DNA of 64,000 nucleotides. Source: a virus. The notes under the pieces are model-generated. The model ran no database searches and was not told the origin of the DNA. It saw nothing but the letters and a program-made list of their open reading frames with translations. Below, one piece after another: positions 1,395 through 48,470 of this stretch. The position numbers and the translations under genes are program-made. Within the stretch, counting starts at the first letter, position 1, and every line of letters starts with the position of its first letter. The stretch spans positions 1 through 64,000 of IMG/VR virus record IMGVR_UViG_3300017818_000007; one strand, written 5' to 3'.

Positions 1395-1428
1395 TCTACA
1401 TACACTAGGCTAAATACAGTCTATAAGT

Positions 1429-1443
1429 TAAACAGTCTGTTTA
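1429..1443. promoter_or_regulatory. Operator-like palindrome TAAACAG-T-CTGTTTA
   Basis: Perfect 7-1-7 palindrome; TAAACAGT also occurs at 244-251 and 316-323. Confidence 0.3.
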
Positions 1444-1489
1444 CTATACACCCGCACTAGATTAAATAATTATATAGGAGGGTGTTATT

Positions 1490-1750
1490 ATGAAAACCCT
1501 AATCATACTATTCATAAGCGTTTGTGTTAACACAGACTGCGTATGGTTTGAAATACAAGATCCAGTGTTTGAATCACCTGAACAGTGCATAGAAGCAGGT
1601 GGTAGAACAGCACAAGAGTTGCAAGAAGCAATGCCTTACTCTAGTGGTGAAATACACTGTGTACCTGAAGATAGTATAGATGATTTTAAAGAATATCTTG
1701 AACAACGAGGATATAGATTAAACCCCAAAGAGACCGGCATTAAAGTATAA
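1490..1750 (+). CDS. Small Cys-motif membrane/secreted protein
   Basis: SD (AGGAGG) upstream; hydrophobic N-terminus followed by spaced Cys residues. Confidence 0.75.
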   Translation: MKTLIILFISVCVNTDCVWFEIQDPVFESPEQCIEAGGRTAQELQEAMPYSSGEIHCVPEDSIDDFKEYLEQRGYRLNPKETGIKV

Positions 1751-1776
1751 TAATAAAAACCGGTTTTATCAATTTA

Positions 1777-1932
1777 ATGAAGAATAAAAAACGTACCAAT
1801 CCGCGTGAACGCATACGTGTTCTACAAGAACAAATACGCAAAACACTCGACACATATGACCGAGAAAGACTAGAACAAGAACTGTTCCACTGGCAACAGG
1901 TTGTTAATCGTAAACCTCAATCGGACTCGTGA
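1777..1932 (+). CDS. Small hypothetical protein (51 aa, MKNKKRTNPRERIRVLQEQIRK...)
   Basis: Hand-translated ORF below the track cutoff; helical, charged composition. Confidence 0.4.
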   Translation: MKNKKRTNPRERIRVLQEQIRKTLDTYDRERLEQELFHWQQVVNRKPQSDS

Positions 1933-2125
1933 CCCAAACATAATTGTGTTCAAAACCCTGTGGTAGCATCACATAGTCTTGGTGTAGGCAACTCATGCCA
2001 CCGTACTGTTCGCTTAATACAAGATCGTAATAGGTTTGTGCTTGTTCGCAGTTGCGGAATGTTCCTATATAGGTATCGCAACACTGCTCCCATGCCAGGC
2101 TCACTGTGAGTATAAACTCCAGCAT
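1904..2125 (-). CDS. Small Cys-motif hypothetical protein
   Basis: GGAG SD upstream; hydrophobic N-terminus plus Cys residues, same style as 1490..1750. Confidence 0.55.
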   Translation of the reverse strand: MLEFILTVSLAWEQCCDTYIGTFRNCEQAQTYYDLVLSEQYGGMSCLHQDYVMLPQGFEHNYVWVTSPIEVYD

Positions 2126-2194
2126 GGCTGTTCTCCATAATGGTTATTGGTGTGTTTATTTATTTTGTGCATACCACCTATGCTAAATACGTAT

Positions 2195-2238
2195 ACGTTC
2201 AGCCACAAGGCCGGAAGTAGCATAATGCGAAGGAACGC
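2195..2238 (+). ncRNA. Glutamine riboswitch (glnA-type aptamer)
   Basis: CGTTC-A-GCC(ACAA)GGC-CGGAAGTA-GCA(TAA)TGC-GAAG-GAACG: P1 CGTTC/GAACG, P2 and P3 hairpins, and the CGGAAGUA...GAAG E-loop core of the glnA RNA motif. Lies between a TAAATA promoter and an SD plus ORF. Confidence 0.8.
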
Positions 2239-2265
2239 ACCTAAACTTTAACCGGGGAGGGTGAC

Positions 2266-2460
2266 ATGAATAGATTCGATCATTTACATCGAATGTACCG
2301 CGAAGAAAAACAGCGTGAACGTAAACGTAAGATCCTAAATCATTCTAGATCTGAAGTTGATATAAACGCAAATGGTACATCAGGATATGTTGTAAAGCAC
2401 GGACCTAATGTGGGTAAGATACTCGCACATCGCAGTCCAAAGTCTACTAACAACTGGTAG
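2266..2460 (+). CDS. Small basic protein downstream of the glutamine riboswitch (64 aa)
   Basis: GGAGG SD at 2256-2260; Arg/Lys-rich N-terminal helix. Confidence 0.8.
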   Translation: MNRFDHLHRMYREEKQRERKRKILNHSRSEVDINANGTSGYVVKHGPNVGKILAHRSPKSTNNW

Positions 2461-2503
2461 TCAAAACACAGCGTCATGCAAGTCACAGATTTTAAATACT
2501 TGT

Positions 2504-3274
2504 ATGACGCAGTTAACAGCCACACAGATTCCTATTACACAAGACCTTGACACCAATGTTGAAACATTAATTTCTCTTATTGACAACAGTCAGGGTTTTG
2601 TGTTAACGGGTGAAGGTAGTCTAAGTGGATACTTTGCTCCTCCTGTAATTAATCAATGCAACAACTTTACAGAACTAAGCAGTGCAGAAAGATATGTAGT
2701 AGGTCACGCAACCACACAAGGTGTACATCTATTACTAGGAACTGGTTGGATGGAACCAGATGGTATGCCCTACAATCAAGTAAGGATATATCACAATGGG
2801 TTTCAAGGTGCTTATTCAAAACGTCTACTCACAACTACTCTACAAGGTGGTGGAGAACGTAATGCTTACATACCTGGTTTTTCAAATAGTGTGTTTCCTC
2901 TAAACGACAGCACACTTGCAGGAGTATTGATCTGCAACGACATATGGGCAACACCTAGTGTGAGTCCAAATGGTAATCCCTATTATGTAAATGAATATGC
3001 ACAGCAAGGTGTTCGTGTATTGTTTTGTAGTGTTAACTGTAATGTAGGTGGGCGTGTTAGTTGGGATCCTGTAATCTATACGTGGCATGAAAATCATCTA
3101 CAGATGTATGCTAAAACATTTGGAATGTACATTGTGGTAAGTGGTAGCAGTTTATCAATGACTGGCGAGCCTATAGAAAAACTACAATGTCCATTAGGTA
3201 TCATTGGTCCTGACGGCGAGTGGATAGAAAAACTAGAACTTGGTCAAACGTCTTGTACCACTAAAATTCAATAA
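2504..3274 (+). CDS. Carbon-nitrogen hydrolase (nitrilase superfamily)
   Basis: Glu-Lys-Cys triad motifs TGEGSLSGY, YSKRLL, LICNDIW. Start moved to ATG 2504 (TAAATA-N5-ATG). Confidence 0.85.
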   Translation: MTQLTATQIPITQDLDTNVETLISLIDNSQGFVLTGEGSLSGYFAPPVINQCNNFTELSSAERYVVGHATTQGVHLLLGTGWMEPDGMPYNQVRIYHNGFQGAYSKRLLTTTLQGGGERNAYIPGFSNSVFPLNDSTLAGVLICNDIWATPSVSPNGNPYYVNEYAQQGVRVLFCSVNCNVGGRVSWDPVIYTWHENHLQMYAKTFGMYIVVSGSSLSMTGEPIEKLQCPLGIIGPDGEWIEKLELGQTSCTTKIQ

Positions 3275-3282
3275 ATATTACT

Positions 3283-3828
3283 ATGGACATGACTGGAAGA
3301 CTACTAGTATCACAACCCACGAGTAAATCGGAATTCTTTAAAGAAAGCGTTATACTCTTAGTGCAACACGACGAACGTGGGGCATGGGGTATACAGATTA
3401 ATAAACCTTTAGATACGTTGTCAATTAAAGATGTAATTACAGATCCTGAGGTGGGTATTACAAACGATACCAAATGTTATCTTGGCGGACCTGTAGAGCA
3501 ACAGGCAATACATCTATTGCATTCAAGTGATTGCGTTATGAGTAATAGTTTGCCTATTACAGATACGCTTACAATTACAAGCAATGCTACAATGTTTAAA
3601 GAAATGGAAATGGGCAGAGGCCCTAGTAAATGGATTTGTACACTAGGTATGTGTACGTGGGCACCAGGACAACTAGATGGTGAAATGAGAGGTGAACATC
3701 CTTGGACACCTCAGCATCAATGGTTAGACACTGCTATACCAAAGGATTTACTTGATAGAAATCCTCGTATGCTATGGAAAGAGTGTGTTAAAACCTGTGT
3801 AGAAAATGCTACATCAACCTTCTTTTAA
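3283..3828 (+). CDS. algH: YqgE/AlgH (DUF179) family protein
   Basis: LLVSQP, F.ESVILLVQH...GAWGIQINKP, YLGGPVE, G.CTWAPGQLDGEM..W motifs. Confidence 0.85.
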   Translation: MDMTGRLLVSQPTSKSEFFKESVILLVQHDERGAWGIQINKPLDTLSIKDVITDPEVGITNDTKCYLGGPVEQQAIHLLHSSDCVMSNSLPITDTLTITSNATMFKEMEMGRGPSKWICTLGMCTWAPGQLDGEMRGEHPWTPQHQWLDTAIPKDLLDRNPRMLWKECVKTCVENATSTFF

Positions 3829-3857
3829 CAATAAATAATAGCACAGGAGAAACCAAG

Positions 3858-4043
3858 TTGTATACACTAACAAGAGATAAATCACCGCAAGGCATAATCT
3901 ATTATTATGTCACCGGTCGTGCGAGTAATAAAGATCTAGAAGAATACTGGAAGACGCAGTATCCTAGTATTAAAACGTATGCGTATACGACTGAAATTTT
4001 AGAAAACGGAGATACTAGAATTAAAGTATTTCAAACAAGATAG
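3858..4043 (+). CDS. Hypothetical protein (61 aa)
   Basis: TAAATA (3832-3837) plus AGGAG SD; TTG start. Confidence 0.6.
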   Translation: MYTLTRDKSPQGIIYYYVTGRASNKDLEEYWKTQYPSIKTYAYTTEILENGDTRIKVFQTR

Positions 4044-4052
4044 GAATAGACA

Positions 4053-4292
4053 ATGGCGGCAAATGGTATATCAACACTAACAACTAAGAGAGCAAGACAA
4101 GATGCTAAACTTGCTCTAGCAGAAACAGACAGAACAAATCGTAATGCTGTTGAGCCAGGACGTTATGCTGATACAACAGCAGATGCAACACAACTTCCAA
4201 CTCGCTATGCTGTTGGTGATAACGACACAAACAATGTAGTTGACAATGCAAATACTGGCGGATTAAAAACTGGTAGGCCTTGGGCAACTTAA
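4053..4292 (+). CDS. Hypothetical phage protein (79 aa)
   Basis: ORF in operon order with SD-like AGGA. Confidence 0.7.
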   Translation: MAANGISTLTTKRARQDAKLALAETDRTNRNAVEPGRYADTTADATQLPTRYAVGDNDTNNVVDNANTGGLKTGRPWAT

Positions 4293-35600: not shown

Positions 35601-37190
35601 TTAGAAAGAAACAAACACCGGCATTGGTGTTATCATTTCTGTGTCTAAGTCCTTCATTTTCTCGTAAATTGCTGGATCCCAATCCGCTAATATTTGTTGC
35701 ATTCGAACGTTAAGCAATGTAGCACTAACAAGGTCATCGTGTTCCCCTGTCTTAGCACCAAATGTAGTGCCGTGTGCTACATATGCTTTAAGTTCTGAAA
35801 TAAGCGGTTTACTTTTAATTTTTAGTTTGCTTGTTTCTAGCAAGTGCTTAAATTTAGCACAAGCACTCATTTTAGTTTTGTGTGTTGTATTAAATCCTTT
35901 TCTAAACTTTCGCACATGGCCTTTTCTAATAGGCTCACTCAAAAACATACCGTAAATGTTTTCTTCACCGTAGTCATTGATGGTCACTAGTGCGGCTTCG
36001 CCTATGGCGTTATTTTCGACTGAATAATACACCTGAGGCAAACTGCCAGACAGTTCTTCGCATTGTTCTTTTATATTTTTTGTTATATCTGCTAATATCC
36101 TGACTTGCCCTTGGATAGGTGTAGTGTTGTGTTGCCACTCTGCTACTTGTTCAAAAGTAGGTAATTCAAATACTTGAATTGCCGCATAGTCTCCTCCTGT
36201 ACCTAAACTTGGGTCCATACTTACAACATACGTCATCTTAGGATTACAATCTTTATACCACCTAGTCTGACCCATTCTTTTTGAAGGTTCTAAACCTTCA
36301 AGTTCTGCAAGTCGAACACTGTTGATTAATGTTTCGTCAAAGATTAAGAATTCACATTCGTGTTCTCGACGGAAACGTTCTTCACCAATACGTGATTTTT
36401 CTTCAGCCGCCCATTGATCATCTCGATCTGGATGTTCACTCCAATGAGCAGTAAACGCATAAAAGCCATTGATACCAACTTCAGTATCATTACCATGTTC
36501 GTCAAATCTTTTTGTTGCTTCAGTCCAAATAAGTGCAAATTGATCTTCGTCACTGTTTGGTGTTGAAGTAATAATTGCTTTACCACCTGTTGCTAGTGTA
36601 GGTGAAATAGCAGTCCAGAATTCTTTAGCAATAGTAGGATTAACGAATGCAAACTCATCACAGTATAGTAAAGATATTGACATACCTCGTCCCGTGTTGT
36701 CTGTGGTTGTTTGTGATACAATACGTGATCCGTTATCAAATTCCATTGATCCCTTGTTATACGATACAACACCGCAACGTATATGATCTGGACAGTCTTC
36801 ATATGCATATCTTATTCTATGCATGATTTCTTGAGCGCCTGCATACTTGTGTGCCGCAATAAGCACAGTCACATCAGGGTTAAACATTGCGTACCATAAT
36901 AGATATCCTGCCGCCGTTGTAGACTTACCTGTCTGTCTTGGTAGCATATTAATATTAAATCTATAACTGTGATATGAATCTACAAGTCTTTCTTGGAATT
37001 CAAAAGGTTGAAACAACAACTTACCTTTAGTAGGATGTTGAATGTAAAAGAAGTTATCCATAAAGTACTTGGGTCCAGTAGTTGGATCCATGCAGGCTTT
37101 AAGGTCTTCAATTTGTTCTTTTGTATATCTTGTCTTACTGTGTGCTTTTTTAACTAGTACACCGTCAAGACTTTTTCCTGTCTGTGCCAT
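35601..37190 (-). CDS. terL: Terminase large subunit (T4 gp17 family)
   Basis: PRQTGKST, LYCDEFAF, ITSTPN, RFRREHECEF, nuclease DPS.G.GGDY and HDDLV. Confidence 0.95.
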   Translation of the reverse strand: MAQTGKSLDGVLVKKAHSKTRYTKEQIEDLKACMDPTTGPKYFMDNFFYIQHPTKGKLLFQPFEFQERLVDSYHSYRFNINMLPRQTGKSTTAAGYLLWYAMFNPDVTVLIAAHKYAGAQEIMHRIRYAYEDCPDHIRCGVVSYNKGSMEFDNGSRIVSQTTTDNTGRGMSISLLYCDEFAFVNPTIAKEFWTAISPTLATGGKAIITSTPNSDEDQFALIWTEATKRFDEHGNDTEVGINGFYAFTAHWSEHPDRDDQWAAEEKSRIGEERFRREHECEFLIFDETLINSVRLAELEGLEPSKRMGQTRWYKDCNPKMTYVVSMDPSLGTGGDYAAIQVFELPTFEQVAEWQHNTTPIQGQVRILADITKNIKEQCEELSGSLPQVYYSVENNAIGEAALVTINDYGEENIYGMFLSEPIRKGHVRKFRKGFNTTHKTKMSACAKFKHLLETSKLKIKSKPLISELKAYVAHGTTFGAKTGEHDDLVSATLLNVRMQQILADWDPAIYEKMKDLDTEMITPMPVFVSF

Positions 37191-41347: not shown

Positions 41348-42484
41348 CTATTTTACAGATTCTGTACTTGCAGTAGACGAACTGTTATTTGTACCTGCGT
41401 TATTATTTAATTGTCCGGGTTGAGTTCCTGAAGGATTACCGGCTTCTGCTTTAGTACGTTTTGCTTGATCAAACTTGTCAGCACCTTTTTGATCTAAAGT
41501 TTGTCTTGCAGTATTAGTTAAACTTTGTTCAGTAATAGCAGTGACTTCTCTTTTGATGCCTTCTTTAGTTAAATTTTTAGCATTGTCAATAGTATTTTTT
41601 GCTTTAATAGCAGTACCAATAAAAGCAAAAGGATCAGCGAATGCAGAACCATCTGAGATACTACCAAAAACATCTAAGCCGCCAGCAAGTACTCCATTAG
41701 CACCAAACAGTCCTCCACTACCTCCGCCCATTACACTTAATGGACTTGGTGTTCTATCATAATGCAGTGTTGCAAATCCTGTAGGATTATCTGTTGTAAT
41801 TCTACCTGTTGCATATTTTACACCTTCATAGATCACAGTCATTTGATTTTCTGCAGGCTGTGAACTTCCAGCACTCATGCTTGGTGGATCCCAACTTTGT
41901 ATCATTGGATTAATTAATGTAAATTCAAAAAATCTATGTCTACTTAATTGATAAATGCTTACACCTTCGTTTTGGAAAAAGTTTACATTTCTATCACTGT
42001 TTAAACCAAACTTAACATATTGTTCTGAATTTTGATAAGGTGTTTGCTTATAAAGTTCCTGCCAATATAAACTGTCGTTGTAGTTTGCTTTAAAATACTG
42101 TTGCCAAAATGCACTTGTTAATCCGTCATTATCATCATGAAAGTTAATTGTGACTGGTGCATATGTGACTGCTGTTTGATAATTTGTTTTTTTACCGTAT
42201 TGATTTTTTGTATCTGTTTGTACCTGTATTCCCGGAAGTTTTACATCTTTAACTAGCATACCACATTCAATTTGTGGACTTGCTTTATTAAAAATACCGT
42301 CAGGTGATCTTAGTGCCGCATTTTGTATATTAAATGTGACATGATATAAAAATTGTACTTTTGGTGCAAGACGCATATAGTCGTCAGTGAACAAACGAGC
42401 CGCGTGTTGATAATCACGCATATCGCCTTCACTACCAAAAATACCTCCGAAAACATTTCCTAAAAATTTTGTTAACTTGGCCAT
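41348..42484 (-). CDS. Tail tube initiator / baseplate protein (gp54/gp48-like)
   Basis: Tube-like motif LVKDVKLPG......NQYG......Y.PV.I.FHDD; downstream of the tail tube gene. Confidence 0.6.
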   Translation of the reverse strand: MAKLTKFLGNVFGGIFGSEGDMRDYQHAARLFTDDYMRLAPKVQFLYHVTFNIQNAALRSPDGIFNKASPQIECGMLVKDVKLPGIQVQTDTKNQYGKKTNYQTAVTYAPVTINFHDDNDGLTSAFWQQYFKANYNDSLYWQELYKQTPYQNSEQYVKFGLNSDRNVNFFQNEGVSIYQLSRHRFFEFTLINPMIQSWDPPSMSAGSSQPAENQMTVIYEGVKYATGRITTDNPTGFATLHYDRTPSPLSVMGGGSGGLFGANGVLAGGLDVFGSISDGSAFADPFAFIGTAIKAKNTIDNAKNLTKEGIKREVTAITEQSLTNTARQTLDQKGADKFDQAKRTKAEAGNPSGTQPGQLNNNAGTNNSSSTASTESVK

Positions 42485-47708: not shown

Positions 47709-48470
47709 TTAGCCAATTATGAACGATAATGGTGTAGAACCATCAACATAATTTGCCAAATCTTGCTCTAATTTTTCAATATCACCTTGTGCATCTGCTT
47801 TAAGGGCATCACCATTTAAACTAGTGCCGCCTTGAGGAGTTGCGATTGTTGCAAATTTACCACGTGCTTCACCAATCATATATTTGCAAGTTGCTAGAGT
47901 ATAATCTTTTAACCATTGTCCTGCATAGGGATCACCTAGTAGAACAAAATCTGGTCTTTTATTATACACTGCTAACATCACAGACTCAGCACCCCGTGGT
48001 CTTTGCATAATTGTTAGTTTGTGGTTTACAGGATCAAATTTAAAGTTAATGAATGAGCCAAACATTTTACCTACAAGTTCTTGATAACCAGCAAAAGCAA
48101 AGTATGTTGCTAGTCCTCCCATTTGTGTTGAACTTAATAGATAGGTATTTGTGTATGCAAGGTTAAATGGTTCAAATACAGTACCACCTTGTCCGCCACC
48201 GCTTCTTGATCCAATACTTCTGCGGAATACTTCTTTTACACTTTGAATCTCATCAGGTAAAATATAGTCATTTGTATCTTCCTGAAGTTCTAAAAATGCG
48301 TATGATTCTTCTACAGAATTCTCTGCTCTTTGTCTATATTTGCCTAATGCTTTTTCTAATGCAACTTCATAGTGATCAACGTCAAGTTCAACATCAATCA
48401 TGCCATCACCTAGCATTTTGCCAACATAGTTAAAAAGTTTTGCTTTTGCGGTATCTAATTGTGTGCTCAT
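47709..48470 (-). CDS. Neck protein (T4 gp13-like)
   Basis: LG..MIDVELD..H, WLK.Y.LA..K...GEARGKF..I..P.GG..LNG.AL. Confidence 0.85.
   Translation of the reverse strand: MSTQLDTAKAKLFNYVGKMLGDGMIDVELDVDHYEVALEKALGKYRQRAENSVEESYAFLELQEDTNDYILPDEIQSVKEVFRRSIGSRSGGGQGGTVFEPFNLAYTNTYLLSSTQMGGLATYFAFAGYQELVGKMFGSFINFKFDPVNHKLTIMQRPRGAESVMLAVYNKRPDFVLLGDPYAGQWLKDYTLATCKYMIGEARGKFATIATPQGGTSLNGDALKADAQGDIEKLEQDLANYVDGSTPLSFIIG

Follow-up and report, generated by a model that had tools for sequence, protein, structure and literature searches.

Does a giant phage read the glutamine status of its host through the 5' end of one of its own transcripts, and if so, which gene does the sensor serve? This question is raised by a short leader in the uncultured virus record IMGVR_UViG_3300017818_000007. 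The window, by which we mean the whole stretch of DNA analysed here, comprises positions 1 to 64,000 of this record, which counts 181,867 bases and has a CheckV completeness of about 50%. An earlier note on the window had proposed a compact glutamine riboswitch upstream of a small basic peptide at 2184-2460. According to its sequence the segment at 2194-2241 is a type-1 glutamine riboswitch aptamer (glnA RNA, RF01739). The best explanation of the locus as a whole, to which we give a probability of roughly three in four, is a translational switch, turned on by glutamine and located on a late phage transcript, that would control a peptide of a type found in SAR11.

Screening the 64 kb window with Infernal against 4227 Rfam families resulted in a single match, to RF01739, on the plus strand. 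It scores 50.1 bits, where the gathering score is 35, has an E-value of 5e-8 and spans model positions 1-53 of 53, which is far beyond chance. The element is the sole one of its kind in the complete record, and the same scan gave zero matches in the window to RF01704, the Downstream-peptide motif. The glnA-type aptamer, for which the earlier note had suggested such a covariance-model search, was thus recovered at full length and above the cut-off. Every coordinate given there was correct as well, from the TAAATA box, P1, P2, the core, P3, GAAG, CACC and GGTG to the ATG and the stop codon. The promoter, the parts of the leader and the gene that follows are:

2184-2189, plus strand: TAAATA box, T4-type late-promoter -10 element by its sequence, 6 nucleotides (nt) before P1
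2194-2241, plus strand: aptamer (RF01739)
2196-2200 and 2233-2237, plus strand: stem P1, CGTTC with GAACG
2202-2204 and 2209-2211, plus strand: stem P2, GCC with GGC, loop ACAA
2212-2219, plus strand: J2/3 junction CGGAAGTA (= CGGAAGUA), with the ligand-sandwiching GG at 2213-2214
2220-2222 and 2226-2228, plus strand: stem P3, GCA with TGC
2229-2232, plus strand: GAAG
2238, plus strand: linchpin C, the expected partner of G2214 when glutamine is bound
2238-2242, plus strand: tail CACCU (CACC at 2238-2241), opposed to the Shine-Dalgarno (SD) region; its first C is the linchpin
2254-2263, plus strand: SD region GGGGAGGGUG, the last five bases of which (2259-2263; GGTG at 2260-2263) can pair with the CACCU tail
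2266-2460, plus strand: peptide gene of 64 codons (ATG at 2266, stop at 2458-2460), predicted isoelectric point 10.7

The aptamer ends 24 nt ahead of the start codon of this open reading frame (ORF). In the solved aptamer structure (Ren et al. 2015, as summarised in PMC11477058) the junction GG sandwiches glutamine, and a linchpin G-C pair forms depending on the ligand (PMC11477058; PMC6212724).

Related leaders allow this fold to be evaluated. Among 88 loci with a placeable start codon, 56 have the aptamer directly upstream, which amounts to 43 distinct leaders, and the aptamers of the relatives score 45-64 bits against RF01739. Pairs were counted in alignment A2, which holds 41 distinct leaders and covers four helices. 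Standard pairs are formed by 97.5% of the cells, versus 82.6% upon shuffling and 25-50% when the partners are slid, and the covariation score is 0.370 versus 0.108 in the shuffles, 0/500 of which reach 0.370. Compensatory changes that affect both sides occur in all four P2 pairs and all three P3 pairs, and one pair of P1 shifts from C-G to U-A. Invariant columns of A2 are G2213, G2214, A2216-A2219, GAAG at 2229-2232 and C2238. Invariant positions of ligand contact combined with compensatory changes in the stems of 41 diverged leaders argue for selection on the fold. Covariation across related phage contigs, which the earlier note had named as a further check, is hence present in P2 and P3. The bases that flank P2 (window positions 2201 and 2212; A2 columns 8 and 25) read A and C in 33 leaders but G and U in the other eight, without any mixed case, and this isosteric A-C / G-U exchange suggests a putative non-canonical pair that extends P2. 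Two more aptamers, which come in addition to the 56 aptamer-bearing loci (L014:3837-3976 and, at the same coordinates, L016), have a P3 loop enlarged by an insertion of about 99 nt and reach 43 bits once this insertion is allowed.

The tail of the aptamer offers a means by which ligand binding could reach the gene. CACCU can pair with GGGUG at the 3' end of the SD region, and this pairing is possible in 41 of 41 leaders. Locus L007 has CACU paired with AGUG, and phage Melnitz shows the same double change independently. Three one-sided compatible changes were seen besides, a terminal U-G that became U-A in L031 and L034 and a wobble in L067. Right after the SD, all 25 distinct leaders with the aptamer have [AG]GUG, versus 0 of 12 aptamer-less phage leaders of the same gene. 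The local minimum free energy fold of 2229-2275 is exactly the CACCU/GGGUG helix with -6.1 kcal/mol, not better than shuffles, and a terminator-like site was not found between aptamer and ORF. The comparative evidence supports a putative platform that couples the 3' tail of the aptamer to the ribosome-binding site (RBS). A translational platform at this very place, formed by CACC and GGTG and serving the basic 64-residue ORF, had been part of the earlier note, and both of its elements stand: the pairing is conserved with two compensatory lineages, and aptamer, SD and ORF are contiguous, with the predicted platform at the SD of that ORF.

The leader has the context of a late promoter. TAAATA or TAAGTA is found 6-10 nt ahead of P1 in 43 of 44 distinct phage leaders. 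In the window TAAATA also recurs, at a spacing of exactly 5 nt, ahead of several gene starts: terL at 37190, the tail tube gene at 42484, and those at 48470, 63757, 28567 and 3283. Across the window as a whole it is depleted, with 62 found versus 104 expected. Judged from its sequence and from its recurrence before virion genes, the box is a TATAAATA-like late promoter of the T4 type. Transcripts of T4 late promoters start about 6 nt past such a box. By analogy, and from the position of the box, transcription is predicted to start at about A2195, one nt before P1, which would make the aptamer the very 5' end of the late messenger RNA (mRNA).

The mechanism that we propose combines these elements. 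Late in infection the T4-type TAAATA promoter would yield a short mRNA with the type-1 glutamine riboswitch at its 5' end. When glutamine is low, CACCU at 2238-2242 would pair with GGGUG at 2259-2263, the 3' half of the SD, and translation of the peptide would be held down. Upon glutamine binding G2214 would insert under P1 and pair with C2238, by which the first sequestering pair would be lost. Since the sequestering helix begins with C2238, the very base that acts as the linchpin, glutamine binding should weaken this helix and expose the RBS, and the peptide would be made.

Several observations weigh against this mechanism. P2 and P3 have 3 base pairs (bp) each in the window. Thermodynamic folding of the leader misses the aptamer and is not better than folding of shuffles (z -0.96); this is usual for a fold that depends on ligand and Mg, and we count it as neutral, without support in either sense. 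The sequestering helix is short, with four Watson-Crick pairs and one G-U, and it is nearly invariant, so that only two lineages provide its covariation. A plainer reason for the conservation of GGUG could be that it extends the complementarity of the SD to the 3' end of 16S. Because of the short and nearly invariant helix, this extended complementarity to 16S and the neutral energies, we infer the direction of the switch, which is taken by analogy with the gifB gene of cyanobacteria. Finally, the closest cultured relatives of the large terminase (TerL) and the helicase of this virus are the Pseudomonas and Agrobacterium jumbo phages PA5oct and Atu_ph07, with 52-56% identity.

The protein that would be switched on is conserved. 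Differences at codon positions 1, 2 and 3 versus eight relatives number 129, 113 and 239, and the comparison with L003 shows 26 synonymous versus 7 non-synonymous codon changes. The ORF is a real gene and, as judged from these substitutions, is under purifying selection. The family counts 67 relatives at the 90%-identity cluster level, nearly all of 64-65 residues, and 192 clusters at 50% identity among 1.84 billion representatives. The window protein is 30-91% identical to 59 family members, and its profile match is whole-length. An N-terminal helix (residues 3-27) is followed by a strongly conserved C-terminal core with an invariant G..GY..K.G, which is included in the profile match. AlphaFold2 models made with 26 and with 60 sequences predict the helix with confidence and give the conserved core a predicted local distance difference test (pLDDT) score of 52-64. 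A core of low confidence is compatible with folding on a partner, although the models hold no evidence for one.

Database searches did not connect the peptide with any named family. In Pfam, PHROGs, NCBIfam, PDB and the ESM Atlas it matches only the unnamed PHROG 32989 (E 2e-10) and unnamed viral clusters, with zero matches in the PDB sequence search and in NCBIfam. Pfam searches with 26 members gave zero matches at E<=10, and this includes DUF4278 (PF14105), the domain of cyanobacterial inactivating factors. PF14105 was also absent from the six frames of the 182-kb record, with a Synechococcus elongatus control found above the cut-off. The earlier note had seen a loose likeness between the segment KILNHSRSEVD and IF7; these Pfam results, with neither DUF4278 nor another family among the 26 members and no DUF4278 in the record, do not bear it out. 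Searching phage records by tblastn gave zero matches for the window peptide and only weak matches, in four Pelagibacter podophages, for its relative P0011. The core may loosely recall a KOW motif, a likeness to which Pfam lends no support. From its sequence the protein is a member of an unnamed family of small proteins of SAR11 and pelagiphages. An 'effector' role in nitrogen status, as the earlier note had it, would follow from the regulation only.

Both viruses and cells carry the family. At least 254 IMG/VR viral contigs encode it. A motif scan of cellular genomes encountered it only in Pelagibacteraceae, and searching with a profile recovered it from 240 of the 301 genomes sampled in this family (which include one unpublished genome, G225), almost always as one copy. 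The window's own record encodes T4-like virion and replication genes, among which are the large terminase, the tail sheath, the tail tube and helicases. Searching its region 1400-3900 at the nucleotide level against 50,697 phage records gave zero matches. Giant-phage contigs similar to that of the window carry the family, with a helicase that is 65-82% identical in 18 loci, and so do Melnitz-like myophages and contigs of T7-like podoviruses. About 15 podovirus-like loci have no aptamer (L010:3940-4000, L011-L013, L015, L017, L019, L020, L025, L032, L033, L040, L045, L047 and L049). There the gene follows a T7-type DNA polymerase module and has a sigma-70-like promoter that resembles TGnTATAAT; the old tail CACCUAA is kept in a small hairpin (UUAGG/CCUAA), and the SD is devoid of GGUG. 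To judge from these leaders, it looks as if the riboswitch was converted to constitutive expression.

RF01739 was found in only 2 of 151 sampled Pelagibacteraceae genomes, and in both the single copy precedes the peptide gene. The neighbours of the SAR11 copy that has the glnA aptamer are ordinary cellular genes, and the idea that it stems from a prophage was rejected on these grounds. The usual neighbours in SAR11 are a divergent flavodoxin-like gene and, downstream, rlmN. In one SAR11 lineage (L090:3566-3865) the peptide gene lies just 3' of a two-piece transfer-messenger RNA (tmRNA) gene, and several single-cell genomes have partial tmRNA-like matches just 3' of the ORF (L084-L087, at about 4143-4238). 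This adjacency echoes the arrangement in Melnitz and may mark insertion at ssrA.

What might the peptide do? As our best guess, its conserved C-terminal core, which does not seem to fold by itself, serves to bind a conserved partner in the host. Gene fusions hint at a single partner, S-adenosylmethionine decarboxylase (AdoMetDC). It is possible, though on balance unlikely, that the peptide works with AdoMetDC or polyamine synthesis, as a regulatory or accessory subunit, and ties the polyamines needed for packaging to nitrogen status. Among 5.8 billion clusters no fusion partner other than AdoMet_dc (PF02675) recurs, with in-frame fusions in P0078-P0080, P0090, P0137, P0207 and L163:948-1517. 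In L007 and L008 the riboswitch is immediately preceded by an AdoMetDC gene, L058 has one close by, and the predicted late expression coincides with DNA packaging. However, fusions and adjacency make up a handful of loci among more than 160, and the fusions could have arisen secondarily, once adjacent genes had lost the leader. Moreover, the 182-kb record has zero AdoMetDC genes, and AdoMetDC is not the neighbour in SAR11. We consider the link to polyamine synthesis a tentative idea, albeit the best specific lead, and rank it above a role in inhibiting glutamine synthetase (GS). The L007 arrangement (L007:3554-3904) is found on a 110-kb viral contig.

The GS role, in which the peptide would be a functional analogue of IF7 and IF17 without homology and would shut down GS or another nitrogen-assimilation enzyme of the host at high glutamine, appears quite improbable. 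The regulatory logic and the size class do match those of gifB products (PMC6212724), the core is not confidently self-folding, as is expected of a partner-binding peptide, and the family is near-universal in SAR11. SAR11 lacks PII, GlnD and NtrBC (PMC3870248), so that the control of its GS is unexplained, which also speaks for such a role. On the other hand the family has zero sequence relation to DUF4278, its SAR11 neighbours are the flavodoxin-like gene and rlmN instead of nitrogen genes, most SAR11 copies are without a glutamine aptamer, and the fusions point to AdoMetDC and not to GS.

We hold it very unlikely that the switch is turned off by glutamine or is a decaying relic without regulatory effect. 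P2 and P3 are minimal with their 3 bp, the direction rests on analogy, and some phage lineages have lost the aptamer and use a sigma-70-like promoter. A relic, however, would hardly be reconciled with ligand-contact positions that are invariant, and stems that change in a compensatory manner, across 41 diverged leaders. Furthermore, zero alternative anti-sequestors are visible that an OFF design could use, and loss of the aptamer is accompanied by loss of its GGUG partner.

Beyond the peptide gene, the surroundings of the proposed glutamine-ON switch consist of:

2169-2183, plus strand: palindrome GCATA-N5-TATGC, which abuts the promoter box
2477-3274, plus strand: carbon-nitrogen hydrolase-like gene (weak Pfam match, 25.5 bits)
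2493-2498, plus strand: next TAAATA box, 5 nt before ATG 2504 of the hydrolase-like gene; downstream limit of the riboswitch unit
3283-3828, plus strand: AlgH-like DUF179 gene, with its own TAAATA box at 3272-3277, 5 nt before the start

The palindrome recurs only once in the window, within a gene, and its GCAT..ATGC arms are kept in the closest phage leaders (L002-L006, L021, L048, L056, L069, L078 and others). As it shows no covariation it may be a DNA site, possibly one that binds a protein. The hydrolase-like and AlgH-like genes have a leaderless layout, with the box 5 nt before the start codon. The peptide gene is linked to the hydrolase gene in only three related loci and to the AlgH-like gene in 11. 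Given the own boxes of both following genes and their rare linkage, the riboswitch unit is the peptide gene alone; an operon with the carbon-nitrogen hydrolase was rejected for its own promoter box and the lack of conserved linkage. That the riboswitch controls another target, either the downstream hydrolase/AlgH-like operon, since the hydrolase gene is nitrogen-related and starts 17-44 nt past the peptide stop, or a neighbouring tmRNA, as Buchholz et al. 2022 placed the Melnitz riboswitch in ssrA (PMC9004378), is the least probable alternative, because both genes have TAAATA boxes of their own and scarce linkage, aptamer, SD and ORF are contiguous everywhere, the window has zero tmRNA, and in Melnitz the aptamer sits on the 3' edge of the annotated tmRNA, after which come the tail and SD known from the window and the ATG of a 32-codon ORF.

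Most SAR11 copies of the peptide gene are preceded by a different structured leader (L097:1409-1503 as representative; also L084-L087, L090, L094-L135 and L158-L161). A TTGACA/TATAAT promoter is followed by two similar modules, each of which has a hairpin closed by CAU/AUG, an A-rich stretch and three to four bases complementary to the hairpin loop. Loop and tail states are GUC/GAC, CCAC/GUGG, UCAC/GUGA, UCUC/GAGA and CAC/GUG in module A, and CUAC/GUAG, CGAC/GUCG, CGC/GCG, UCGC/GCGA and GAUC/GAUC in module B. Among 47 distinct leaders pseudoknot A is 90% paired versus 64% in shuffles and pseudoknot B 98% versus 75%, with 0/2000 shuffles as high in either case; these counts follow a fixed parsing rule, are inflated by relatedness and include three mis-parsed rows. 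The Rfam scan of this leader gave zero matches at E<=5 or at gathering scores, and it is absent from the motifs of Meyer et al. 2009. By its pattern of changes it is a candidate new cis-regulatory RNA, either a riboswitch or an autoregulatory site.

A wider idea, which we regard as speculative and rather doubtful, is that the 64-residue protein is an unrecognised regulator of nitrogen or polyamine status in SAR11 that phages have copied, that the glutamine riboswitch gates it in phages and in a few SAR11 lineages, and that the leader which would gate it in most SAR11 cells is a new riboswitch class that reads the same or a related metabolite. If true, the cassette would supply a part of nitrogen control that has been missing for the most abundant heterotroph of the ocean, and phages would take over control at this point. 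In any case the peptide family exposes a second structured leader in SAR11 that can be tested as a riboswitch candidate.

How does the locus compare with known systems? Glutamine riboswitches have been understood experimentally only in cyanobacteria, where they switch on inhibitors of GS. For gifB of Synechocystis sp. PCC 6803 the reporter turns on after ammonium upshift, a response that was abolished and restored by the M1/M3 mutations (Klahn et al. 2018, PMC6212724), and in the model the linchpin C and the bases that follow it pair with the RBS and are released by glutamine (PMC6212724). The window's leader resembles that of gifB, which encodes IF17, in having RF01739 directly upstream of a gene for a small basic protein and the same proposed SD-sequestering platform. 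It differs in that the regulated protein is unrelated to DUF4278/IF17, in that the promoter is a phage late TAAATA box instead of an NtcA-controlled one, and in that it belongs to a giant T4-like phage of a non-cyanobacterial lineage, with P2 and P3 reduced to 3 bp. The type-2 glutamine riboswitch, or Downstream-peptide motif (RF01704), is likewise a glutamine-sensing leader before a short conserved ORF in streamlined marine genomes, and precedes short ORFs of marine picocyanobacteria (Weinberg et al. 2010, PMC2864571); it is a different aptamer class and has a different, DUF4278-like peptide family.

Glutamine riboswitches of phages as such have been published. Buchholz et al. 2022 described them in OM43 phage Melnitz, Pelagibacter phage Mosig and metagenome-assembled genomes of pelagimyophages, and took the Melnitz element to belong to the tmRNA gene and to control it, with no downstream ORF named (PMC9004378). 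Melnitz and the window have the same aptamer, tail and SD, and 97% of a related leader can be aligned with that of Melnitz, at 78% identity. Unlike Melnitz, the window has no tmRNA, its target is a full and conserved gene of 64 codons, and its phage is not Kyanoviridae-like, with a TerL 56% identical to that of PA5oct-type jumbo phages. The Melnitz annotation has a late-transcription co-activator next to its riboswitch copy. In Melnitz (L162:1500-1669, MZ577097.1 46399-46568) the CACU..AGUG platform is followed by an unannotated ORF of 32 codons (L162:1571-1669), which resembles, by eye only, an N-terminal remnant of the peptide family; the Melnitz record annotates a minus-strand ORF at this site. 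In this light, the published interpretation of the Melnitz element as regulating the tmRNA seems to deserve a second look.

Among the papers that were searched, none links a glutamine riboswitch to the peptide ORF family or to SAR11 cells, and the target gene appears not to have been recognised before. The aptamer itself is ordinary; new are the target gene, the re-reading of Melnitz and the second leader in SAR11. The sensor and SD-release platform of cyanobacteria would here be wired to an unrelated small protein, on a late transcript, in phages related to those of SAR11 and OM43. This directs attention to an unstudied and evidently important small protein, for which the first regulatory clue, predicted by analogy with gifB, is that it would be made when glutamine is high.

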